Virus record (IMG/VR): IMGVR_UViG_3300008108_000036
From: a virus
Length of the DNA: 64,000 nucleotides
Direction: 5' to 3' (one strand)
Under the pieces are notes generated by a model. That model searched no databases. It saw only the letters and a program-made list of their open reading frames with translations, and was not told where the DNA came from. Both the position numbers and the translations under genes were made by a program. Shown here piece after piece: positions 6,343 through 36,461 of the stretch. Within the stretch, counting starts at the first letter, position 1, and every line of letters starts with the position of its first letter.

Positions 6343-7001
6343 GATTTAATAAATGATTTTATTTGCTCAATAAAATAAGAATCTTTTGTTATATCGCCTT
6401 GAATAACATTGATATCAGTTTGTGTATTTAAAAACGTTTCGATTTTTTCTTTTTTGCTTTTAATTCTTTTTGCTATTGACTCCTCATTCTCTGACCAATT
6501 TTTCATGGAGCTTGTTAATACTTCGTTATCAGAGCGTTTTAAATATATGTATTTTACAGTGCGATATAATTTATTTAATATATTTAAAAAATTTAAATTT
6601 TCATACATGTCCCATCTAATCTCTTTAAATCCTGTAATTTGTTGGTTATAATATGTAGTTAAAGTTTTAATTAATTTATAATTTAACGTTTCATATGCAT
6701 CGCAATTATGGTACATTTCATTACCAATATAATAGTCAACTCCAGCTATTTGTGTTTGCAATTTAGCATCGGCCACTGTTTTTATGCTTTTTTTTATATG
6801 AGGGTGGTTAGAAATATGAGTTAAAAATTCATTTAAACAATCAATAGTTTTTAATAAACTTAAAGTTGTACCCATATCCTCTCCATAAATTGTAGTATTA
6901 CAATCTCTGTTAAGTTGATTCATAACAAACGTAGACCCACATCTCCCAACGCCCATTATTATAACAAACGTCGAGTTTATCATAAATAATGATCTAAGCA
7001 A
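6339..7001 (-). CDS. Sulfotransferase (P-loop-like fold)
   Basis: IIMGVGRCGSTFVMNQLN, GFKEIRW, KYIYLKR motifs. Confidence 0.75.
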   Translation of the reverse strand: MLRSLFMINSTFVIIMGVGRCGSTFVMNQLNRDCNTTIYGEDMGTTLSLLKTIDCLNEFLTHISNHPHIKKSIKTVADAKLQTQIAGVDYYIGNEMYHNCDAYETLNYKLIKTLTTYYNQQITGFKEIRWDMYENLNFLNILNKLYRTVKYIYLKRSDNEVLTSSMKNWSENEESIAKRIKSKKEKIETFLNTQTDINVIQGDITKDSYFIEQIKSFIKS

Positions 7002-8842
7002 AGAGGATATTTGTTAATTTGTGCTTCAACTTGACTGGGAGACATTTTCCATATATGGCCCATTCCGCCATCAATATCTGACGCTGCACAATCAGCATTA
7101 ATATCTACGCACGGGTAGTTTAAAAACTTCAATTGCACTTCCGGATCGCTTTTTGGATCACAGCACATAGATATAAACTTATCAGCAGGAGCTATAATAC
7201 TGTTAGGTTCGTATACTTTGCAAGGTTGTTTAATTTTCTGTTGTTTTGCTATTAATTTCACGTTTGGTGGATCATAGTGATACACATGCTCTAAAAACTT
7301 AGGTTGTTGAGTTGCTCTAATTAATTTTTTAGCTCCCTCAAGACTAACAATATAACTTTCAGTTCCATGAAAAATTACTCTATGCTCTGGTTTTACATAG
7401 CTAAACCTTTTATTCAATTGAATAAATTCGTATGCCTCTATATTTACTGGCATACGATTTAAAAATTTGTTTAAAGAATGAGTATCAACATCATCTTCAA
7501 CCACGAGAACATGTGATAACTTTTGTTGTACAATTTGTTCCCAAATTAAATAATGGCTTAAATAACATCCTACTGCTCCATTTGCTCCTTTAAAATACAT
7601 AGAATAAGTAATGGTAGAAGGTCTTACTACGAGATTATAATCTAGACACAATTCGGGAGTTTTCCGAGTATCAATGGCGCTAAATTCTTGAATAAAAGGT
7701 ATGTCCGAATTAATTTTTTTCCATCTCTCACGGTTGTCTTTAAGTGTAACGCAAACTCCATGTTCTATAGATTTGTTTGGAATAAACTTAACATTGAATT
7801 CAGAAGTTTTATAAAAAACTTTATAAGGAGTTCTTTGAACAGATGCAAGAGGCTGATGACAAATTAGTCTGTTAGATATATTAGATTTTGATTTATTTGC
7901 TAATTCGTAGTTTTTAGTCCTTTCGTCGTCATTATGAGGTAAATGTTTGATAAACAGACTAGCGTCTGGCCAGATTACTTCTTTCATTCTTGGCTTGGTT
8001 TCTATTATTCTTCTACTCAAATCTAAATCATCAAATCCCCAACCATTTAAATCTTCTCTGTAGTAAACAAAGTCCTTTTTATCACAAAAAAGCAATCCGC
8101 TCATCGAATGACCGAATCTCCAATCTCCTCTAATAAAGTAACATTCTGAACTATCGTATACTGCATTATCAAGTCTGGTAATCCAGGAAGAATCAACGCA
8201 CAAGTGATCACAGTCTATTTTTAATAATTTATCACACGACGCAAAATCTGCTGCCAAATTGTAAGCCTTGCCTAAATTGAAGTGATTTTCTTCTTCGACT
8301 CTAACTATAATGATTTTTTGATGTTTGGCCCATTCTTTAATCAAAGAAAGTTCGGATAAAGGAATTTTAGAATTAAAATCTACGATTATATATTCTTTAA
8401 TTTGAGGTATATCAAACCATGTTGGTAAAGTTTGAATCAAGTGTTCGTGACGGTCCATGCATGCTACGATTAAAGAAGCTTCTATTTTAGAAGTTTTTAC
8501 GTGATTTTTTATTATAATACTTTGTTCTGTTGTTGTTTCATTCTCAGCAAACCATTGCTGTAATTCATTCACCGCTTCTACCCACATTTGATCTAATGAG
8601 TGTTCGGTTGGTTCGCCGTCTTTGTATAGTTTGTTTAAGACATATTTTACTAAGCTTGGTTTATTTAACTGCTTTGCAGTGATTCCGCATAAAATTAAAG
8701 TTTCTTTTTGAGAACTTTGTGTTTCTATAAACTGCTCTAATTCTTTTTGGTCTTCTTTAAGTCGTATTATGTTGTTTAACACGACGTCATAAACATCAGA
8801 AGTCTCTAACGTTTTATTTACAATTTGATCAACATTTTTCAT
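6980..8842 (-). CDS. Two-domain glycosyltransferase (GT2/GT7-like + GT25)
   Basis: ACMDR..FNLGKAYN..KIDCD..GWGFDDLDL (GT7 C-terminal-like), followed by GAVGCYLSH..VLVVEDD..GTESYIVSLEGAKKL (GT25). Confidence 0.8.
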   Translation of the reverse strand: MKNVDQIVNKTLETSDVYDVVLNNIIRLKEDQKELEQFIETQSSQKETLILCGITAKQLNKPSLVKYVLNKLYKDGEPTEHSLDQMWVEAVNELQQWFAENETTTEQSIIIKNHVKTSKIEASLIVACMDRHEHLIQTLPTWFDIPQIKEYIIVDFNSKIPLSELSLIKEWAKHQKIIIVRVEEENHFNLGKAYNLAADFASCDKLLKIDCDHLCVDSSWITRLDNAVYDSSECYFIRGDWRFGHSMSGLLFCDKKDFVYYREDLNGWGFDDLDLSRRIIETKPRMKEVIWPDASLFIKHLPHNDDERTKNYELANKSKSNISNRLICHQPLASVQRTPYKVFYKTSEFNVKFIPNKSIEHGVCVTLKDNRERWKKINSDIPFIQEFSAIDTRKTPELCLDYNLVVRPSTITYSMYFKGANGAVGCYLSHYLIWEQIVQQKLSHVLVVEDDVDTHSLNKFLNRMPVNIEAYEFIQLNKRFSYVKPEHRVIFHGTESYIVSLEGAKKLIRATQQPKFLEHVYHYDPPNVKLIAKQQKIKQPCKVYEPNSIIAPADKFISMCCDPKSDPEVQLKFLNYPCVDINADCAASDIDGGMGHIWKMSPSQVEAQINKYPLCLDHYL

Positions 8843-8847
8843 AAAAA

Positions 8848-8876
8848 TTATTAAATCGAAATTGGCATTTTGTCAA
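8848..8876 (-). promoter_or_regulatory. Sigma70-like promoter for left glycan operon
   Basis: TTGACA-N17-TAATAA, 5 nt before ATG at 8842. Confidence 0.55.
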
Positions 8877-8929
8877 CTAATATCTTTATGTGTTTGACCT
8901 TAATCAGACCATAGCTTAAGTTATGTTAA

Positions 8930-11437
8930 ATGTCTCAAAATTTTACTCCACGTGCTCAGCAAGCCTTAGCTTTAGCAAGAAAAGAAGCTGAAAATTTAAA
9001 TCACACTTACATAGGAACAGAACACTTGTTGCTAGGATTTTTAAAACTAGGTCAAGGATTAGCATTAAAAGTATTACAAGAGTTAGGAGTAACTATAGAA
9101 ATTGTTTACGAGATAATTAAAAATAATTCTTCTGAAAATAATAACTCGCTACTAAATTCTAAAAAAGAGAATATCCCGATTACACCTAGAGTTAAGAAGG
9201 TTTTACATTTAGCGGAAAAAGAGTCTAAAAAAATGGGCCATACATATGTTGGAACGGAACATTTATTGCTAGGATTATTGAAAGAAACTGAGGGAGCTGC
9301 TGCAACAATTCTACAGCAAGAGTTTAATATTAATTACGAAAAAGCAAAAGAGCAAATACTAAAAGAGATCGATCCGAACTATCAAAGCAATGAACCTGTA
9401 CTAGCTGGTCAAGAAAATTTTCAAAAATCAAGCTCATCAAAAAAATCTACAGCACTTAAAACATACGGAAAAGATCTAACAGAATTAGCAAAAAACGGAA
9501 AGCTCGATCCTGTTATAGGTAGAGTAAATGAAATCGAAAGGACTATTCAAATTCTTTGCAGAAGAACAAAAAATAATCCAGTTTTAATAGGAGAAGCTGG
9601 TGTTGGCAAAACAGCTATTGCTGAAGGATTAGCACAAAAAATTATATCAAATAATGTTCCTGAGTTACTGTTAAATAAACAAGTTATTACATTAGATTTA
9701 GCTTTATTGGTTGCAGGAACTATGTATAGAGGTCAATTTGAAGAAAGATTGAAAACTGTAATGAATGAAGTAAAGAAAAACGGAAATGTTATTTTGTTTA
9801 TAGACGAGCTACATACAATCGTAGGAGCAGGATCCGCTTCAGGGTCAATGGACGTTTCTAATATTTTTAAGCCTGCTTTAAGTAGAGGTGAACTTCAAAT
9901 CATTGGAGCAACTACGTTAAATGAATATAGAAAGTATATAGAAAAAGATACTGCGCTGGAAAGAAGGTTCCAGCAAGTTAAAATTGAGGCTCCGAGCGTC
10001 AATGACGCTATTCAGATTTTAAAAGGAATCAAACATAAGTACGAAGAGCATCATAAAGTTATATATACAGACGAGGCACTAGAATCAGCATCACTGTTGT
10101 CGGATAGATATATTTCTGATAGATTTTTGCCAGATAAAGCAATCGATTTAATCGATGAAGCAGGATCTAGAGCAAGAATTAACTCCACAATAAAGCCCCA
10201 AGATTTTACTACCTTAGAAAATTCTATTACAGAATTAAAAGCTAAAAAACAAGAAGCAATTAAAAATCAGGAGTTTGAAAAGGCCGCAGCTACGAGAGAT
10301 CAAGAGCGTAGAGCTACTGAATCGTTAGCTGAAGCTCTAAACAAATGGAAGAAAACTAACAAAGAAAATATCGTTACGGTGAATAAAGAGGATATTATAA
10401 CTGTATTATCTAAATGGACAGGAATCCCTTTGTCGAGAATCGATGAAAAGGAAGCAGAAAAATTATTACAGTTAGAACAAACTCTAGAAAAGCGAATTAT
10501 CGGTCAAGAGGAAGCAATAAAAGCTGTGAGTACAGCAATTCGTAGAGCTAGAGCGGATTTAAAAGATCCAAAACGTCCTATAGGCACTTTTTTATTTTTA
10601 GGTCCTACAGGAGTCGGTAAAACATTTTTAGCAAAAAATATTGCTGAATTAATTTTTGGCAATAAAGATTCGCTTATTCAAATTGATATGAGCGAATATA
10701 TGGAAAAATTTTCAGTTTCCAGATTAATAGGATCTCCTCCTGGTTATATCGGTCATGAAGAAGGAGGACAATTAACAGAGAAAGTCAGAAAAAATCCTTA
10801 TTCTGTAGTTCTATTTGATGAAATAGAAAAAGCTCATCCTGATGCTCTACATTTGTTATTGCAAATATTCGAAGAAGGAATTGTTACGGATTCGCTTGGT
10901 AGAAAAATAGATTTTAAAAATACAATTGTAATTCTCACTTCAAATGTTGGAGCTACCTTTGCTTCAAAACAAACTAACTTGGGATTTGGAGTAAAAAATG
11001 AACCAAACACGAATTATGAGACAATGAAAGAAAAAACTATGAGCGAAGTTAGGTCTTTTTTTAAGCCAGAACTTTTAAATCGAATGGATAGCATTGTTGT
11101 TTTTAAATCTTTAACTACAGAAAACATTAAATTAATAGTTCAATTAGAGGCTTTGTGTTTAATTAATCGATTAAAAGAAAACAAACAAATTACGTTAATT
11201 CTTGATGAGTTAGCTGTAGAATTTATTGCAGAAAAGGGTTCTAAAAACGAATATGGCGCTCGTCCGATTAGAAGAGCGATTGAAACTTATTTGGAAAATG
11301 CAATAGCCGAAAAAATCTTAAGCGGTGCTATAAAGAACAAAGAAACAGTAATTGCGACCGTATCGGCTGACAATAAAAATAATATAACTCTATTAAAAAA
11401 TCAAAATAAAAAACAACGTAAAAAGAATTATTTTTAA
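8930..11437 (+). CDS. clpC: ATP-dependent Clp protease ATP-binding subunit ClpC
   Basis: Two Clp-N repeats (FTPRAQQAL..IGTEHLLLG), Walker A GEAGVGKT and GPTGVGKT, UVR coiled coil (QEFEKAAATRD), LGF ClpP-docking loop. Confidence 0.95.
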   Translation: MSQNFTPRAQQALALARKEAENLNHTYIGTEHLLLGFLKLGQGLALKVLQELGVTIEIVYEIIKNNSSENNNSLLNSKKENIPITPRVKKVLHLAEKESKKMGHTYVGTEHLLLGLLKETEGAAATILQQEFNINYEKAKEQILKEIDPNYQSNEPVLAGQENFQKSSSSKKSTALKTYGKDLTELAKNGKLDPVIGRVNEIERTIQILCRRTKNNPVLIGEAGVGKTAIAEGLAQKIISNNVPELLLNKQVITLDLALLVAGTMYRGQFEERLKTVMNEVKKNGNVILFIDELHTIVGAGSASGSMDVSNIFKPALSRGELQIIGATTLNEYRKYIEKDTALERRFQQVKIEAPSVNDAIQILKGIKHKYEEHHKVIYTDEALESASLLSDRYISDRFLPDKAIDLIDEAGSRARINSTIKPQDFTTLENSITELKAKKQEAIKNQEFEKAAATRDQERRATESLAEALNKWKKTNKENIVTVNKEDIITVLSKWTGIPLSRIDEKEAEKLLQLEQTLEKRIIGQEEAIKAVSTAIRRARADLKDPKRPIGTFLFLGPTGVGKTFLAKNIAELIFGNKDSLIQIDMSEYMEKFSVSRLIGSPPGYIGHEEGGQLTEKVRKNPYSVVLFDEIEKAHPDALHLLLQIFEEGIVTDSLGRKIDFKNTIVILTSNVGATFASKQTNLGFGVKNEPNTNYETMKEKTMSEVRSFFKPELLNRMDSIVVFKSLTTENIKLIVQLEALCLINRLKENKQITLILDELAVEFIAEKGSKNEYGARPIRRAIETYLENAIAEKILSGAIKNKETVIATVSADNKNNITLLKNQNKKQRKKNYF

Positions 11438-26094: not shown

Positions 26095-26135
26095 AATAAA
26101 GTATTTAATCAAACCTTTGTAATTTTATACGAGGG

Positions 26136-26207
26136 AGCCGGGTATCGGGGTCGAACCGATGACCTACGGTTTACAAAACCGTCGCACTACCACTGTGCTA
26201 ACCCGGC
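26136..26207 (-). tRNA. tRNA-Thr(UGU)
   Basis: Cloverleaf; ACGGT-TTTGTAA-ACCGT anticodon arm; GGTTCGACCC T arm. Confidence 0.93.
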
Positions 26208-26213
26208 TTAAAA

Positions 26214-26289
26214 TGGTAGCGACGTTGGGACTCGAACCCAATTTGTGTGCTTATGAGACACACCAGACCACCTGGCCTAGCCCATCGCG
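26214..26289 (-). tRNA. tRNA-Met(CAU), initiator-like, atypical D arm
   Basis: C1:U72 mismatch, CTCATAA loop, canonical T loop, encoded CCA; 7-bp D stem with 4-nt loop. Confidence 0.8.
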
Positions 26290-26300
26290 ATTAAAATTAT

Positions 26301-26438
26301 TTAGTTAGAACGGACTGGTTTACAAACGGTTTTGCAATCAGCAGGTTTACAAGAATTTTTTACGCAAGCTTTGGGAGATGTACAAGAAGAAAGAGCAATT
26401 ACAGTTGCTAGCGACAAAATAGCCATGAGTGTTTTCAT
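26301..26438 (-). CDS. Small Cys-rich lipoprotein
   Basis: MKTLMAILSLATVIALSSC signal plus lipobox, followed by a CxxxxC repeat tail. Confidence 0.6.
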   Translation of the reverse strand: MKTLMAILSLATVIALSSCTSPKACVKNSCKPADCKTVCKPVRSN

Positions 26439-26484
26439 GTTTAGTACATTAAAAGATTTTTTTAAAAAGACAACTTCAAAATGA

Positions 26485-27255
26485 TTAGAAAAATTTTGGG
26501 CAACCAGGTTCATTCAATAAGGATGAATGATTTGAGATTAAATAGTCTTTCATTTGGTCGTAGTTTAAAAAACAACTGTCGATTGGTTCGATAAATTGCT
26601 TTGCATACTGTGTGGTTAATTTATGCTCAGAAAAATCATTAATTTCTAATCTATCAAAAATGTTTTTTATCGAATTTCTACTAATAACATCTTCGTATGT
26701 TATGTTTAAATATTTATCAGGAAATTCTTTTGCTTTTCGCAAATAATACCGAGCTCCACAGATATGATCTCTCAAAAAAAGTTCAAACTCGTCAGGATCA
26801 AATACTAGTTTTCTTGCGGTCGGTTCAGTCTTAATTTGAAACCATTTTCCTGTAGCTTTAGCTCTCAACGTCGAGATGTACCTCGCAATGGGATTCCTTA
26901 ATAATATAATTTTTTGATACTTAGGTGAATCAGCTATATACTTTAATAATGTTTGATTTTGATCCCAGAATATTTTAAATCCGATAGCTTTAAATTTAGA
27001 ATTACTACTCAGCTTTACTATTTCGTTCCAATAAGCTAAAGGTTCAGCTTTGTTTCGTTCTTTCCAATTTTGATGTGTACTTCCATGCTGAATTATCCAT
27101 TCCTGATCCGAATATTCTGTATCCGGTTTGTATAATTCATAATAACATTTAATCGAAGGAATACGATCTAATATATCTACCAATAAGGATGAACCTGTTC
27201 TATGCAGAGAAAATATTGCAAATTGTTTTATATCATCTTGATGACTTGTTCCCAT
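26485..27255 (-). CDS. Sulfotransferase (Stf0-like), paralog 1
   Basis: IFSLHRTGSSLL, GFKIF, LLRNPIARYIS, ITYED. Confidence 0.8.
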   Translation of the reverse strand: MGTSHQDDIKQFAIFSLHRTGSSLLVDILDRIPSIKCYYELYKPDTEYSDQEWIIQHGSTHQNWKERNKAEPLAYWNEIVKLSSNSKFKAIGFKIFWDQNQTLLKYIADSPKYQKIILLRNPIARYISTLRAKATGKWFQIKTEPTARKLVFDPDEFELFLRDHICGARYYLRKAKEFPDKYLNITYEDVISRNSIKNIFDRLEINDFSEHKLTTQYAKQFIEPIDSCFLNYDQMKDYLISNHSSLLNEPGCPKFF

Positions 27256-27293
27256 TGTACGAATAATTAAATTAAGCTATTTGAAAGACAACA
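27246..27293. repeat. 48-bp exact direct repeat, copy 1 (promoter + start of sulfotransferase)
   Basis: ttgttcccattgtacgaataattaaattaagctatttgaaagacaaca identical to 28087-28134. Confidence 0.92.
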
Positions 27294-27301
27294 CAAAAAA
27301 G

Positions 27302-28096
27302 CTAGGGAAGTTCTGGGCAACCGGGGTTATTCAATAGAGTCGGATGGTTTGAGATTAAATAGTCTTTCATTTGTTCGTAGTTTACAAAACAACTATCAAT
27401 TGGCTCAGTCGATTGCTTTGCTAAATCTGTAAACATTCTACACTTGGGAGGACAATTGATGGTTAACTTATCGAGAATGAGTTTTATTGATTTTCTACTT
27501 ACAACGTCCTCATACGTTGTAATCAAATATTTATGTGGTTGTTGTTTAGCTAAATGCAAATACCAATTAAAGGATTCATTGTGTTTTTTCAAAAAAAGTT
27601 CAAACTCATCAGGATTAAATATTAGTTTCTTTGTTAATGTTGTATGTTCGTCATCTATTACTTGCAACCATAAACCCGTAGTGATTGCTCTAGTAAATGA
27701 AATAAACCTTGCAATAGGATTTCTTAATAATATAATTTTTTCGTAGTTAGAAGATTTCGCTATAAACTCTAAAAATTTGTCGTGGTGCCCTGCAAATATT
27801 TTAAATCCTACAGCTTTAGTAGATTTATCACTCAATCTTACTATTGTATTCCAAAAAGCTAATGGGTTAGATTTTTTTTGTTCTTCTAATCTACTGTATT
27901 GCTCTATTCCTAGTTTAGATATAATAAGTTTTGTGTGAAGATAGTTGGGATTCAACTCATCCTGGCTGCAATATACTTCGTCGTAACATTGAACGTGATC
28001 AATGTTATCCAATAAACACGTCAAAAGATTCGTGCCTGACCTATGCAAAGAGAATATTGCAAATTGTTTTATATTATCTTGCTGTTTTGTTCCCAT
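27302..28096 (-). CDS. Sulfotransferase (Stf0-like), paralog 2
   Basis: IFSLHRSGTNLL, GFKIF, LLRNPIARFIS, TTYED; clear paralog of 26485..27255. Confidence 0.8.
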   Translation of the reverse strand: MGTKQQDNIKQFAIFSLHRSGTNLLTCLLDNIDHVQCYDEVYCSQDELNPNYLHTKLIISKLGIEQYSRLEEQKKSNPLAFWNTIVRLSDKSTKAVGFKIFAGHHDKFLEFIAKSSNYEKIILLRNPIARFISFTRAITTGLWLQVIDDEHTTLTKKLIFNPDEFELFLKKHNESFNWYLHLAKQQPHKYLITTYEDVVSRKSIKLILDKLTINCPPKCRMFTDLAKQSTEPIDSCFVNYEQMKDYLISNHPTLLNNPGCPELP

Positions 28097-28134
28097 TGTA
28101 CGAATAATTAAATTAAGCTATTTGAAAGACAACA
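28087..28134. repeat. 48-bp exact direct repeat, copy 2
   Basis: Identical to 27246-27293. Confidence 0.92.
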
Positions 28135-28139
28135 AAAAA

Positions 28140-28212
28140 CTACGGAGATAGGACTCGAACCTATAACCCTCAGATCCAAATTCTGATGCACTACCAATTG
28201 TGCTACTCCGTA
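28140..28212 (-). tRNA. tRNA-Gln(UUG)
   Basis: U1-A72, G73; TCAGA-ATTTGGA-TCTGA. Confidence 0.9.
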
Positions 28213-28218
28213 TTAAAA

Positions 28219-28293
28219 TGGCACTCCCAAGGGGACTTGAACCCCTGCTACCTCCGTGAAAGGGAGATGTGCTAACCGCTACACTATGGGAGC
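28219..28293 (-). tRNA. tRNA-Glu(UUC)
   Basis: TCTCC-CTTTCAC-GGAGG; encoded CCA. Confidence 0.93.
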
Positions 28294-28299
28294 AAAAAA

Positions 28300-28384
28300 C
28301 GGAAGAGGAGAGATTCGAACTCTCGGAGACTTGCGCCTCGGCGGTTTAGTAAACCGCTGCAATAGACCACTCTGCCACCCTTCC
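28300..28384 (-). tRNA. tRNA-Ser(ACU), rare A34 anticodon
   Basis: GCGGT-TTACTAA-ACCGC; long variable arm; G73. Confidence 0.88.
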
Positions 28385-28402
28385 TTTTATTTAATTAAAA
28401 TA

Positions 28403-28485
28403 TGCTCATGGAGGGACTCGAACCCACATTCCTTACGGAACCAGATCCTAAGTCTGGCGCGTGCTGCCAATTTCGCCACATGAGC
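28403..28485 (-). tRNA. tRNA-Leu(UAG)
   Basis: CCAGA-CTTAGGA-TCTGG; long variable arm; A73. Confidence 0.92.
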
Positions 28486-28492
28486 TTTAAAA

Positions 28493-28568
28493 TGGTGCTC
28501 GGGGTGGGACTCAAACCCACGATAGCCTGCGTGTAAAGCAGGTACTTTAGTCGCTAAGTTACCCGAGC
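28493..28568 (-). tRNA. tRNA-Val(UAC)
   Basis: CCTGC-TTTACAC-GCAGG; encoded CCA. Confidence 0.9.
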
Positions 28569-28626
28569 TTTGAAAAATAGACCATTTGTTTTGAAATATT
28601 TGGTCTTATTCTCATAAATAATATAC

Positions 28627-29193
28627 ATGCCTAATCTAATTGAATCAGTTTGTCAAAATTGTACTAGTATTTTTTTTCAAAACAAATGCAAAGAAGAGCG
28701 TTTAAAAAAATTCTGTAATCGATCTTGTGCAGCTTCATATAATAACAAGCAAAGAGAGTATAAAAATACAACCTCATTTAAAAGCAACTGTAAAAATTGT
28801 AAAGTCGAGTTTGTGTATTCTTGTCATGCGTCTACTGGAACATATTGCAGTAATAAATGTCAAAGAGATTTTCAATTTCTTAATGAAACTCTTTTAAGAG
28901 CTGAGCAAGGACTAATAAACCAATCCTCGACATTAAAACGTGTAATAGAATTTAAAACAAAGCACAAATGCTTTTGCTGTGGCATTACAGAATGGAACGG
29001 AAAACGTTTAAGTTTGCATTTGGATCACATAGACGGTAATTCTGATAACAATTTTTTAGAGAATTTAAGATTGTTATGTCCAAATTGTCACTCACAAACT
29101 GAAACATTTTGTGGACGGAACATTAAAAACACCAAACGTTCATCTTATAATAAAAGATATAGAATTAAAAAATTAGCTCTACCGCTGAGCTAA
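28627..29193 (+). CDS. Free-standing HNH homing endonuclease within tRNA array
   Basis: Zn ribbons (CQNC, FCNRSC, CKNC, YCSNKC) and LHLDHIDGNSDNNFLENLRLLCPNCHSQT. Confidence 0.92.
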   Translation: MPNLIESVCQNCTSIFFQNKCKEERLKKFCNRSCAASYNNKQREYKNTTSFKSNCKNCKVEFVYSCHASTGTYCSNKCQRDFQFLNETLLRAEQGLINQSSTLKRVIEFKTKHKCFCCGITEWNGKRLSLHLDHIDGNSDNNFLENLRLLCPNCHSQTETFCGRNIKNTKRSSYNKRYRIKKLALPLS

Positions 29194-29200
29194 CTCCGCC
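29176..29200 (-). pseudogene. 5' half of a destroyed tRNA (acceptor strand + D arm only)
   Basis: Reverse complement GGCGGAGTTAGCTCAGCGGTAGAGC, then runs directly into the HNH gene; no anticodon or T arm found nearby. Confidence 0.7.
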
Positions 29201-29211
29201 TATTATAAATG

Positions 29212-29285
29212 TAGACCTAGTTGGACTTGAACCAACGACCTGTTCATTATCAATGAACTGCTCTAACCAACTGAGCTATAGGTCT
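29212..29285 (-). tRNA. tRNA-Ile(GAU)
   Basis: GTTCA-TTGATAA-TGAAC. Confidence 0.93.
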
Positions 29286-29290
29286 GAAAA

Positions 29291-29364
29291 TGGTGCGGGA
29301 TGGGAGAATCGAACTCCCAACCGAAGTTTGGAAAACTCCTGTTTTACCATTAAACTAATCCCGC
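29291..29364 (-). tRNA. tRNA-Gly(UCC)
   Basis: GGAGT-TTTCCAA-ACTTC; encoded CCA; A73. Confidence 0.92.
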
Positions 29365-29367
29365 ATA

Positions 29368-29439
29368 TCGAGTACCTCGGTACTGCCCCGAGTATTTCCT
29401 GGTCCCAAACCAGGCGGATTTCTTTCTTCCTCGTACTCG
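29368..29439 (-). tRNA. tRNA-Pro(UGG), non-canonical D and T loops
   Basis: Perfect acceptor CGAGTAC/GTACTCG, CCTGG-TTTGGGA-CCAGG, T stem CTCGG/CCGAG with loop GGCAGTA. Confidence 0.75.
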
Positions 29440-29489
29440 AAGTTGGTTTATTTATACAATTTGTACATCGAGTTCAAATCTTCCTGAAG

Positions 29490-29574
29490 TGGTGGGTAGT
29501 GCAGGACTCGAACCTGCGAAGCCCGAAGGCAGGAGATTTACAGTCTCCGGTAATTGCCGCTATACGAACTACCC
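29490..29574 (-). tRNA. tRNA-Tyr(GUA)
   Basis: GGAGA-CTGTAAA-TCTCC; variable arm; CCA. Confidence 0.93.
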
Positions 29575-29598
29575 GCAAAATATTGTTTTGTTTAAAAA

Positions 29599-29693
29599 TG
29601 GTGCAAGGTGTGGGAATCGAACCCACGCTCGGCCCACATCTAGGGCACACAGATTATAAGTCTGTCGGTACTATCCAGTTATACTAACCTTGC
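29599..29693 (-). tRNA. tRNA-Ile(UAU) with long variable arm
   Basis: ACAGA-CTTATAA-TCTGT; V arm GCCC-TAGATGT-GGGC; CCA; 95 nt. Confidence 0.85.
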
Positions 29694-29701
29694 AAAAAAA
29701 A

Positions 29702-29774
<73 letters not shown>

Positions 29775-29783
29775 ATTATAAAA

Positions 29784-29860
29784 TGGCGTTCCCAGCTGGA
29801 ATCGAACCAGCAACCTACGCTTTAGAAGAGCGTTGCTCTATCCAGTTGAGCTATGGAAAC
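29784..29860 (-). tRNA. tRNA-Arg(UCU)
   Basis: ACGCT-CTTCTAA-AGCGT; A20; CCA. Confidence 0.93.
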
Positions 29861-29868
29861 GTAGAAAG

Positions 29869-29954
29869 TGGTACTCGGAGAGGGACTCGAACCCTCACGG
29901 TCGTTAGACCAACGGATTTTAAGTCCGTTGCGGCTGCCATTACGCCATCCGAGC
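29869..29954 (-). tRNA. tRNA-Leu(UAA)
   Basis: ACGGA-CTTAAAA-TCCGT; variable arm; CCA. Confidence 0.93.
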
Positions 29955-29970
29955 AAAAACAATGTTAAAG

Positions 29971-30045
29971 TGGCTGGCAAGGTAGGATTCGAACCTACGA
30001 CCAATCGGTTAACAGCCGACCGCTCTACCACTGAGCTACTCGCCA
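29971..30045 (-). tRNA. tRNA-Asn(GUU)
   Basis: GTCGG-CTGTTAA-CCGAT; G73; CCA. Confidence 0.94.
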
Positions 30046-30059
30046 AATTTTTGTTGTAC

Positions 30060-30071
30060 TTTTCAAAGATC
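30060..30071 (-). promoter_or_regulatory. BoxA-like antitermination element in tRNA operon leader
   Basis: GATCTTTGAAAA about 15 nt upstream of the first tRNA of the array. Confidence 0.45.
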
Positions 30072-30217
30072 ATTGTTTGCTAGTTTTGAATTAGCTTTAT
30101 TGTTTGACTACTGTCCGTTATTTACTCTATAAAGGCAACAAAAAATCAAAAAATAAATTAAATTACGGTAAAATAATAAACAGTCGGCTTTTATAGATAA
30201 TGGAGTATAGTTAACAC

Positions 30218-30769
30218 ATGAATATATTTTTAGACATGGATGGTGTCCTTGTTGATTTGTATGGAAAAATTGCGTTAGAAATGTTTAATAAGACTTACTT
30301 GGAACTCACACAAGATGAAATATTAAACGCAAAAGCAATTTGGAAGGACAAAAAGCGTGCTTCAGCTTTTTTTAATAATTTCGGAGGAGTAGAATCATTT
30401 TTTGCTGATTTGCTCGAATTTGAAGACAAAACTCAACAAATCGTAGAAATCGTGTCGGGGTTCGATCCTTTTTATAAAATATGCTCTAAGCCTGCTCAAA
30501 TTGATATAGAAGCATCAAAAAAAGGAAAAATTCGCTGGATTAAAAAATATTTAGTTAAAAATCCTCCAAGCGAAATAATACTGACTCAAAATAAAGCTAA
30601 GTGGGCTATTAGTGAAAGTGGACAGCCTAATATATTAATTGATGATTATGATCCGTATCTTAAAGCTTGGACAGAAAGCGGAGGAATATCAATTAAGTTG
30701 GATTCTATAAATCGTACAACAAATGACATTAAAATAATTTTAACTAATCAGTTATCAAAAATTTTATAA
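30218..30769 (+). CDS. HAD-family 5'(3')-deoxyribonucleotidase (NT5C-like)
   Basis: IFLDMDGVLVD, GKIRWI, ILIDD, W..SGG. Confidence 0.85.
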   Translation: MNIFLDMDGVLVDLYGKIALEMFNKTYLELTQDEILNAKAIWKDKKRASAFFNNFGGVESFFADLLEFEDKTQQIVEIVSGFDPFYKICSKPAQIDIEASKKGKIRWIKKYLVKNPPSEIILTQNKAKWAISESGQPNILIDDYDPYLKAWTESGGISIKLDSINRTTNDIKIILTNQLSKIL

Positions 30770-30779
30770 GGTAGGACTT

Positions 30780-31052
30780 CTAACAATTCCAACCGTATAT
30801 CCATTTTCCTTCAGAATCCTTTTCAATTTCAGTCCACTGGTGCACATTTGTTGTGTTTCCTCTATAAAGTACCATCCACAAAGAAACATTTGTTGTTGTA
30901 GTTATTATCCATTTACATTTAGCCAATGTAAGAACCATGCTTAAAAAATGAACAGCTAGTGCTGATTTTTCAATTAAATGGTCAAATTCGTAATTTCCGT
31001 TATGTACTCCTTTCCACGAGGTTTTATTTAAACACGGCAAATTGCTGTTCAT
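30780..31052 (-). pseudogene. Probable C-terminal remnant of a fucosyltransferase-like glycosyltransferase
   Basis: LAKCKWIITTTTNVSLWMVLYRG resembles GT-B fucosyltransferase C-termini, but the ORF is only 90 aa. Confidence 0.35.
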
Positions 31053-31053
31053 T

Positions 31054-31821
31054 TTAGCTGTATGTTTGAGCTATTCTTTTGCAATTAGTCATTTCGTCGT
31101 TATAATTTAAGTTAAAAAAAATAGTTTCATTTGCTTGTGGAGAGTTTCGTACTACTGTGAAACAATCGTGTAACGACTTGCTGTCGTTTGTTGTATCATA
31201 AGAGAACATCTCTTGACTAATTATTGATAAATTGTTGGCTTTAGTTAAGTTATTAACTAACTCAAACCCTACATCTGGAGATCTCCAGTGTTTGTTATTC
31301 GATGTATTGCAATTTTGCAAATTGCTGTGATGTAAAAACATGGTTCCTCCGGGCTTTAGAGTTCGTTTTGCTTCTTTAATATAGCTTTCTATTACATCCA
31401 ATTGAGAGTGAACTAGCGAATCATAGCTAAATATAAAATCTACCGAATTGTCTTCGGTATGAGTTAATGTTTTTCCGTCATTTAAATAAAAGAAAGCTTT
31501 TTTATTTAAGATGTCGAAATAGAATTGCTGCTCACAATTCTTAATTCCTGTATCGTTAATGTCATAGCCAACGAACTTGTTGCACGTGTTGTTTAAAAAC
31601 CGAGACCACCTACCCCAACCACAAGCTATTTCTACAATGCAGTGTGAATTAATATATTTTCTAATTCTGGGAAATATTGTAGTCCACCATTGAGAGTCGC
31701 TTCCGCCAAAAGCATTGCTCCATCCTTCTCCTCTAAAGGTGTCGCTTCCTGGAGTTGACCACGCTTTTTTATTATTTGCGAGTGTTGTTTCTCCAAGAGG
31801 ATGATTTTGACTTGTGCTCAT
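31054..31821 (-). CDS. Class I SAM-dependent methyltransferase
   Basis: VEIACGWGRW, GYDIN, NDG, DFIFSYDSLVH, LKPGG. Confidence 0.88.
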   Translation of the reverse strand: MSTSQNHPLGETTLANNKKAWSTPGSDTFRGEGWSNAFGGSDSQWWTTIFPRIRKYINSHCIVEIACGWGRWSRFLNNTCNKFVGYDINDTGIKNCEQQFYFDILNKKAFFYLNDGKTLTHTEDNSVDFIFSYDSLVHSQLDVIESYIKEAKRTLKPGGTMFLHHSNLQNCNTSNNKHWRSPDVGFELVNNLTKANNLSIISQEMFSYDTTNDSKSLHDCFTVVRNSPQANETIFFNLNYNDEMTNCKRIAQTYS

Positions 31822-31866
31822 TAATTAATTTAGTTAATAAAAAACAAAAGACAACTTTAATTAAAG

Positions 31867-31939
31867 TGGAGGCAAGGGGATTCGAACCCCTGACATCCAG
31901 CTTGCAAAGCTGGCGCTCTACCAACTGAGCTATACCCCC
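31867..31939 (-). tRNA. tRNA-Ala(UGC)
   Basis: G3:U70; CCAGC-TTTGCAA-GCTGG. Confidence 0.94.
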
Positions 31940-35909: not shown

Positions 35910-35958
35910 ATAAAAAAGCAAGTTTTGATGGTTTTTGATCTTTGATAAATTATTTTAA

Positions 35959-36410
35959 GGGGGTGCCCTGGTTTCGACATATAGTTGAAACTAAAAGCGC
36001 ATGTAGAGGTTAATCGATGGCCTCTTTAAAAATCGATTGAACACTAAACGCAGAAGACAATACTTCTGATCTCTTAGCTGAAGCTGATTACATCTTCAAC
36101 AACGCTGATGAGTTTCTCATCGACGTTGAAGAAGCTTGTGCTCTCGAAGCCTAAGAGCCTAATAGAGGATCCTCTAAATCTATTTTGAAACGCAGAGGTT
36201 TTGATGAACTGTTAGAGATCATAGAAAAACTGATACAGAGGTAGTACAAGACCTCTCACTTGTGCAGGCAGACATAAAAATCGGTTGATACAACCATGCA
36301 GCCTTTTGTCTTTGTCACCGTAAGGTGGCTGAAATGTTGAATGTATCCAAACGTGTGAAGACCTTTTAGCTTAGGTTATATGGACAGGGGTTCGATTCCC
36401 CTCATCTCCA
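35959..36410 (+). ncRNA. ssrA: tmRNA
   Basis: 5' GGGGGTG..GGTTTCGAC; PK1 (AGAGG/CCTCT, AATCGAT/ATCGATT); tag ORF 36050-36154; 3' GGACAGGGGTTCGATTCCCCTCATCTCCA with G3:U70. Confidence 0.93.
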
Positions 36411-36461
36411 ATAAAATAAAAATTGTTGAAAAACTCATAATTCAAATGTTAATCAAGTCCT

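Follow-up and report, generated by a model that had tools for sequence, protein, structure and literature searches.

The window analysed herein, a 64,000-nt stretch from the IMG/VR record IMGVR_UViG_3300008108_000036, belongs to an uncultured, deep-branching T4-like lake phage with a G+C content of ~31%. Among its genes are a UvsW-like helicase that shares only ~31% identity with its counterparts in cultured T4-like phages, an SbcC-like nuclease, numerous glycosyltransferases and an array of tRNA genes, the last as part of a wider set of translation genes. ARAGORN makes a single tmRNA call, a one-piece RNA of 452 nt on the plus strand, located between the gene for a carbamoyltransferase and a lysis cassette. 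Rfam RF00023 matches 35959–36413 over the full model (positions 1–374) with 111.6 bits (gathering score 47; E 9e-43), and both programs thus confirm the initial annotation of this locus as a real phage tmRNA. The features of the gene and of its possible partners in the window are summarized in Table 1.

Table 1. Features of the tmRNA locus and of related translation and proteostasis genes in the window.
Feature	Coordinates	Strand	Basis
One-piece tmRNA gene	35959..36410	+	ARAGORN; Rfam RF00023; compensatory changes
tRNA-like domain, 5' half: acceptor strand GGGGGUG (G3 opposite U) and GGUUUCGAC element	35959..35978	+	Sequence; Rfam alignment
Pseudoknot 1: hairpin 36006–36024 and downstream partner 36033–36038	36006..36038	+	Rfam alignment; covariation
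Predicted tag reading frame: resume codon GCA 36050–36052, 34 codons, stop codon TAA 36152–36154	36050..36154	+	Rfam resume codon; codon-level conservation
Codons 8–23: 16-residue core of the family tag, predicted acidic amphipathic helix	36071..36118	+	Conservation; AlphaFold2
Helix 5 round the stop codon	36132..36160	+	Folding and comparison of 14 relatives; Rfam alignment
Penultimate codon GAA (Glu; Ala in ~91% of the family)	36146..36148	+	Tail counts; loop position
T arm and 3' acceptor strand with discriminator A	36382..36410	+	Sequence
Phage ClpC unfoldase, 835 aa, possible partner	8930..11437	+	Pfam; full-length alignment to B. subtilis ClpC
Array of 16 tRNA genes	26133..31939	-	ARAGORN; Rfam

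The tRNA-like domain has a 7-bp acceptor stem, in which GGGGGUG pairs with CAUCUCC and includes the G3-U pair, an alanine identity mark. The T arm is standard, with the T loop GGUUCGAUUCC, and the 3' CCA is not encoded, the gene ending in ...UCCA followed by AUA. Pseudoknot 1 sits just upstream of the Ala resume codon, in the context TAA-AC-GCA at 36045–36052, and its stem columns 52–56/72–76 covary between AU, CG and GC within the family of relatives described below. In helix 5, codons 28–30 of the tag pair with six bases 3' of the stop codon, which places the last four codons and the TAA in the loop. Among 40 diverse family members, compensatory changes that alter both sides and keep the pairing were found at 28 of the 41 predicted pairs, and the RNA structure appears to be under selection.

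Altogether, the comparison points to a complete, structurally conserved gene that is predicted to yield a working RNA. Because integrases target ssrA, temperate phages often carry pieces of tmRNA genes (PMC9004378), and a dead gene, either the remains of an attachment site or a host-derived copy in decay, could be imagined on that ground. Such an origin is hardly credible for the window gene, however, which has its full length, a score close to those of its relatives (L104, 116 bits; L135, 113 bits), covarying helices and a tag under purifying selection, and which lies between the carbamoyltransferase gene and the lysis cassette in a T4-like phage. A conserved leader motif, (GA)TCTTTGA(A/T)A, was also observed 8–24 nt upstream of the mature 5' end, at 35937–35948 in the window and at the corresponding site in most of 109 relatives. 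The motif matches neither a sigma-70 nor a T4-late promoter, and it may serve as a signal for processing or transcription. No convincing promoter of either type was found upstream of the tmRNA, where scan matches were no more frequent than expected by chance.

The frame of the tag given in the initial annotation was reproduced from the sequence: 34 residues, 11 of them Asp or Glu and none Lys, Arg or His, with CALEA at the C-terminus. Its resume codon had been left for ARAGORN and Rfam to settle. The Rfam alignment consensus places it at GCA 36050–36052, two bases after TAA 36045–36047, whereas the ARAGORN tag lacks the first ten codons and begins at 36080. The later start was rejected because the ten codons that it skips evolve as peptide in the relatives (pN/pS 0.27, with changes mostly at third positions; 88–110 relatives), the whole frame being kept as peptide among 110 distinct relatives. 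Across these 110 distinct genes, pN/pS is 0.11 in the 16-codon core and 0.26 in the last three codons. In addition, third positions of the core vary at 16 of 16 codons, and invariant residues of the tag are spelled with two or three different codons. This combination of low pN/pS (0.11–0.27 over a short frame whose stop codon lies in a hairpin loop) and synonymous variation argues that the frame is translated from GCA 36050 and that the peptide is under purifying selection.

The tag belongs to a family of long tags, carried by at least 140 phage contigs, in which 32–35 residues (rarely 45) share a near-invariant 16-residue core. Relatives were collected with several probes. The pseudoknot-1 hairpin recovered 28 true relatives in IMG/VR and a degenerate pattern of the tag core at least 120 metagenome contigs. 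A 29-mer from the 3' tRNA-like domain (36382–36410) occurs exactly in 57 IMG/VR contigs, and is not family-specific, because many of its carriers are cyanophage two-piece tmRNAs. The pattern scans demand exact degenerate matches and missed the member G031, so the family counts are lower bounds. The matches listed yielded 139 complete tags, from 110 distinct sequences. Among 78 distinct tags, core residues L9, A10, E11, A12, I15 and N17 are invariant and seven further positions nearly so; the window departs from the core consensus once, with Asp for Glu at position 13. AlphaFold2 models residues 5–17 as a helix with pLDDT above 90, and the core is predicted to form an acidic amphipathic helix. 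Conservation of this helix at the peptide level implies that some factor must read the core.

So far, as judged by these searches, the family has been found only on phage DNA, since neither a real protein nor a convincing cellular genome carries the motif. No resemblance to the tag was found in the ORFs of the window, in Pfam or in the PDB (best E 8.3). A profile of the 78 tags matched 37 of 1.84 billion proteins, of which 36 are ORF-caller artefacts of 28–85 residues lying over tmRNA genes, and no real protein in that set carries the motif. Furthermore, the exact degenerate core pattern, which could miss distant cellular relatives, gave a single match in 185,579 bacterial species genomes (one genome each). 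This sole cellular match, L206 (RFNV01000365.1; G030:C248), is a 1.4-kb contig of a Lake Lanier MAG with tRNA-Ala and tmRNA in the phage arrangement, and its tmRNA is the only one above threshold in that MAG; it is probably a mis-binned phage fragment. The window tmRNA had no blastn match in 50,697 phage records.

Several variations on the RNA were noted among the relatives. Group I introns (RF00028, 69–84 bits) split the T loop of four family members (L067:3844-4078, L068:2569-2803, L103:430-637 and L146:331-537); intron-bearing tmRNAs are known from bacteria (PMC11915505), whereas these lie in phages. L064 and L090 carry an insertion of ~80 nt directly 3' of the tag stop, which is TGA and not TAA, and still score 91–109 bits. 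In L076, L126, L169, L197, L058, L107 and L206, the T arm lacks the usual GGUUCGA loop (e.g. GGCUAUCGUAAGCC) and the acceptor strand is kept. The 3' CCA is encoded in the tmRNAs of G031 (L294:1501-1942, minus strand) and G032 (L293:1501-1964, plus strand) and not in the window, so that family members differ in whether CCA must be added. Outside the family, many cyanophage-like IMG/VR contigs (L001, L003, L007, L011, L023, L025 and others) encode two-piece permuted tmRNAs with tags of 21–31 residues that end in LATV, LVAA or LVTA, and their 29-nt 3' tRNA-like end is identical to that of the window. A more distant phage tmRNA of 409 nt (L036:9422-9830, minus strand) has another long acidic tag, ending ELCFA, and has little but the 3' end in common with the window RNA.

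The initial annotation regarded the long acidic tag as unusual. Length and acidity are common to at least 140 phage tmRNAs, mostly with an (L/M)AA end, and it is therefore the Glu at the penultimate (-2) position that sets the window apart. Among the matches listed, the 139 complete tags end in LAA in 114 cases, MAA in 12, LEA in 3 (the window, L101 and L104) and LDA in 2 (L135 and L191), so that 126 of the 139 (~91%) end in (L/M)AA. In place of the Ala-Ala protease signal of tmRNA tags, the window tag ends in Leu-Glu-Ala. Further acid ends were found in P0008 (CSLEA) and in G031 (YSLEA), the latter reached through its ClpC. An acidic penultimate residue (L-E/D-A) is thus present in at least five lineages, that of the window being counted together with L101.

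Two trivial sources of this Glu were ruled out. L101 is an independent metagenome assembly of the window phage, 99.4% identical over 1397 nt, and since this separate contig has the identical tag, the non-canonical LEA end read in the initial annotation stands and is not an assembly error. Folding and comparison of 14 relatives put the Glu codon among the loop bases of the hairpin that holds the stop codon, and the Glu is therefore not imposed by RNA pairing. The acid-ended RNAs are 69–84% identical to the window RNA over their full length, with Glu or Asp kept in all, and the distribution of tag ends indicates that the acidic residue is a derived state in the family. The tmRNA tree has three changes of tag-end state. 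A constraint that unites all acid ends in one clade costs 48.5 log-likelihood units and is not formally rejected (AU p 0.07); the acid end likely arose more than once, and the acid-ended phages may form a single lineage.

The window also encodes a ClpC-type class I AAA+ unfoldase, as the initial annotation had proposed and as Pfam domains and full-length alignment uphold. The protein has two Clp_N repeats, two AAA modules with Walker motifs and a short UVR-containing middle domain (Pfam), and can be aligned over its full length to B. subtilis ClpC (E 1e-272), LGF standing opposite VGF in the ClpP-docking loop. By tblastn against 50,697 phage records, its top matches, at ~45–55% identity, are mostly short unannotated records or "Bacteriophage sp.". 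The phage ClpCs group with cellular ClpCs on contigs of 0.2–1 Mb; one of these neighbours is Ca. Udaeobacter (Verrucomicrobiota), which gives a weak hint of the host from sequence grouping. Searches with the E. coli proteins detected no ClpP, ClpX, Lon or SmpB in the window. Likewise, neither SmpB nor ClpP was found in five relatives that are at least 92% complete, nor ClpP in five ClpC-bearing relatives. Host SmpB would therefore have to serve the phage tmRNA, and any proteolysis would need a host peptidase.

The occurrence of chaperone-type genes follows the tag end more closely than does that of ClpC. ClpC is present in all three testable acid-ended genomes (the window; L104, at 1.2 kb from the tmRNA; and G031, which has the closest viral ClpC). 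It is also found with canonical ends (G001, ELAA; G032, SLAA; L151, ALAA); of ten canonical-ended relatives at least 67% complete, one has it and nine are without it. Its distance from the tmRNA ranges from 1 to ~44 kb. Of the loci examined, only those of L104 and L135/L191 have a full-length DnaJ gene next to the tmRNA. In G031, a cassette of gp32-like SSB, DnaK, GroES and GroEL lies in a row (L299 = G031:C1:14000-32000, genes 6546-11394) between the replicative helicase and terminase genes, amid core phage genes. IMG/VR labels the G031 contig 'provirus', probably because of its host-like chaperone genes. In the window itself, ClpC is the only chaperone-type gene shown. No HSP70, DnaJ or GroEL was found in 24 canonical-ended IMG/VR relatives, of which six reach a completeness of at least 92%. 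So far, among the acid-ended genomes that can be checked, the acid-ended tags appear only in phages with chaperones of their own; this link amounts to an association and does not prove coupling, because the acid-ended phages may be one lineage. A subtilisin-like S8 peptidase was observed near the DnaJ gene and acid-ended tmRNA in L104 (L104:635-2662, plus strand) and L135 (L135:1650-4034, minus strand), the two being 34% identical; no homologue was found within the window.

Compared with the canonical one-piece tmRNA of E. coli (tag ANDENYALAA), the window RNA is alike in its G3-U tRNA-like domain, pseudoknot 1 and further pseudoknots, in an Ala resume codon that closely follows a stop triplet and in a stop codon held in a hairpin. 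It differs in being ~90 nt longer, in being encoded by a phage in which no SmpB gene was found, in a tag end of Glu-Ala where the canonical one has Ala-Ala, and in a tag of 34 residues, 11 acidic and none basic, against a modal length of 10 residues in bacteria (PMC11915505). Phage tmRNAs as such are already known, from the Bxz1 group of mycobacteriophages and Bacillus phage G (PMC4131195), while two-piece forms occur in Melnitz and pelagimyophages, and the Melnitz study found tmRNA in 2.3% of phage genomes (PMC9004378). The window resembles these (Bxz1, phage G, Melnitz) as a lytic phage with a complete ssrA beside tRNA genes and a need for host SmpB; upkeep of the hijacked translation machinery is the function proposed for the known ones. 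No description of the conserved long helical tag of its family was found in either paper (PMC4131195; PMC9004378). The window tmRNA differs further in representing another RNA lineage, one-piece and with no blastn match among the 50,697 phage records.

Natural changes of the tag end have a cellular counterpart. Gur and Sauer are said to have reported in 2008 that the tmRNA tags of Mycoplasma, of ~27 residues, switched from ClpXP to Lon. Those tags are likewise long, end unlike LAA and have had a change of reading protease proposed for them, but they belong to a cellular lineage without ClpXP, whereas here a phage lineage changes one residue and its relatives keep LAA. A likeness at the residue level is found in penultimate-Ala mutants of ssrA tags, in which, as in the window, this Ala is replaced. 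The Ala-Ala-COO- end is the main ClpXP determinant, mutation of the penultimate Ala raises KM, and mutant ssrA tags serve as non-degradable controls (PMC7652416). It is from these data that poorer recognition of LEA by ClpXP is expected, and by this analogy the Glu at -2 plausibly makes the window tag a poor ClpXP substrate. The mutant tags are engineered in E. coli, in contrast to the window LEA, a natural variant kept in several phage lineages.

The reading that we favour, at slightly better than even confidence, is that of a working phage tmRNA whose acid end weakens the ClpXP signal, so that tagged chains meet another fate. The phage tmRNA would be charged with alanine and would use host SmpB, EF-Tu and AlaRS; during infection it would enter stalled ribosomes, free them and add the 34-residue acidic tag, read from GCA 36050. 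The conserved acidic helix would be bound by some reader, and the Glu or Asp at -2 would lower recognition by host ClpXP, an extrapolation from E. coli ClpX. Rescued, tagged chains would then escape ordinary clearance and be left, or handed, to other machinery, plausibly the phage chaperones and ClpC. A hand-over to phage ClpC or DnaK is suggested by gene content and is unproven, in the case of ClpC because it also occurs with canonical ends. A bolder form, in which the tag end co-evolves with phage proteostasis genes, is tentative and on balance doubtful. It holds that in phages with ClpC plus DnaK-GroESL or DnaJ the ClpX signal was switched off, perhaps repeatedly, and that the chains are kept from host ClpXP and handled by phage chaperones or unfoldase, with the helix as a handle.

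The acid end could also have other explanations. In many bacteria, the essential activity of tmRNA is to release ribosomes and not to mark chains for proteolysis, and if release alone mattered to the phage, the protease signal could drift and the Glu at -2 would be neutral or slightly harmful. Other odd ends in the family (EAA, LVA, LTA, EAV and ALV) are what such relaxed constraint would leave. Drift is nevertheless unlikely, given a pN/pS of 0.26 in the last three codons and the (L/M)AA end of 126 of the 139 tags among the matches listed. Nor is the change at -2 random: the residue stays Glu or Asp over 16–31% RNA divergence, and the acid end tracks phage chaperone content. Alternatively, the signal may be matched to the host, whose own tag, ClpX or a different protease (Lon or FtsH, for example) would accept L-E/D-A and degrade the chains normally. 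The Ca. Udaeobacter neighbour of the phage ClpC is the one named hint of a host, and phage tmRNAs often resemble those of their hosts, as the Melnitz paper describes (PMC9004378). Close relatives, presumably on similar hosts, keep LAA, however, and no cellular tmRNA with the family tag was found in the 185,579 species genomes, where a host tag with a different core would escape the pattern; we consider normal degradation improbable.

The private proteostasis circuit put forward in the initial annotation, with phage ClpC and ClpP, survives only in part: no ClpP was found in the window or in ten related genomes and ClpC occurs with both tag ends, whereas the checkable acid-ended genomes all carry phage chaperones and the canonical-ended ones are without DnaK, DnaJ and GroEL. 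A version that uses host ClpP would have phage ClpC recognise the acid-ended tag, its LGF loop docking on host ClpP to degrade the chains and so take rescue products from host ClpXP; without ClpP, it would remodel them. An intact ClpC with a ClpP-docking loop, its presence in the three testable acid-ended genomes (window, L104 and G031) and in just one of the ten canonical-ended relatives at least 67% complete are consistent with this, and M. tuberculosis ClpC1P1P2, with a ClpC-type unfoldase, degrades ssrA-tagged GFP in vitro (PMC4416901). What makes the pathway distinctly unlikely is that the canonical-ended G001, G032 and L151 have ClpC too, that ClpC-tmRNA spacing varies from 1 to ~44 kb, that neither a phage ClpP nor an adaptor was found, and that nothing ties ClpC to a C-terminal L-E-A. 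ClpC, moreover, usually requires adaptors or phospho-arginine marks, a need that also speaks against this pathway. A tag-and-degrade circuit owned by the phage would show its own ClpP and a consistent pairing of tag and unfoldase, and neither was seen.

To our knowledge, phage tmRNAs are known yet almost unstudied. What is new here is the natural loss of the Ala-Ala signal in a phage tmRNA, tracking phage chaperone content. The family offers a testable handle on whether phages reroute the products of ribosome rescue and on what reads the long tag. If functional, the link between tag end and chaperones would be the first example of viral rewiring of trans-translation output and, if the reading is true, it would constitute a virus-owned branch of bacterial translation quality control.
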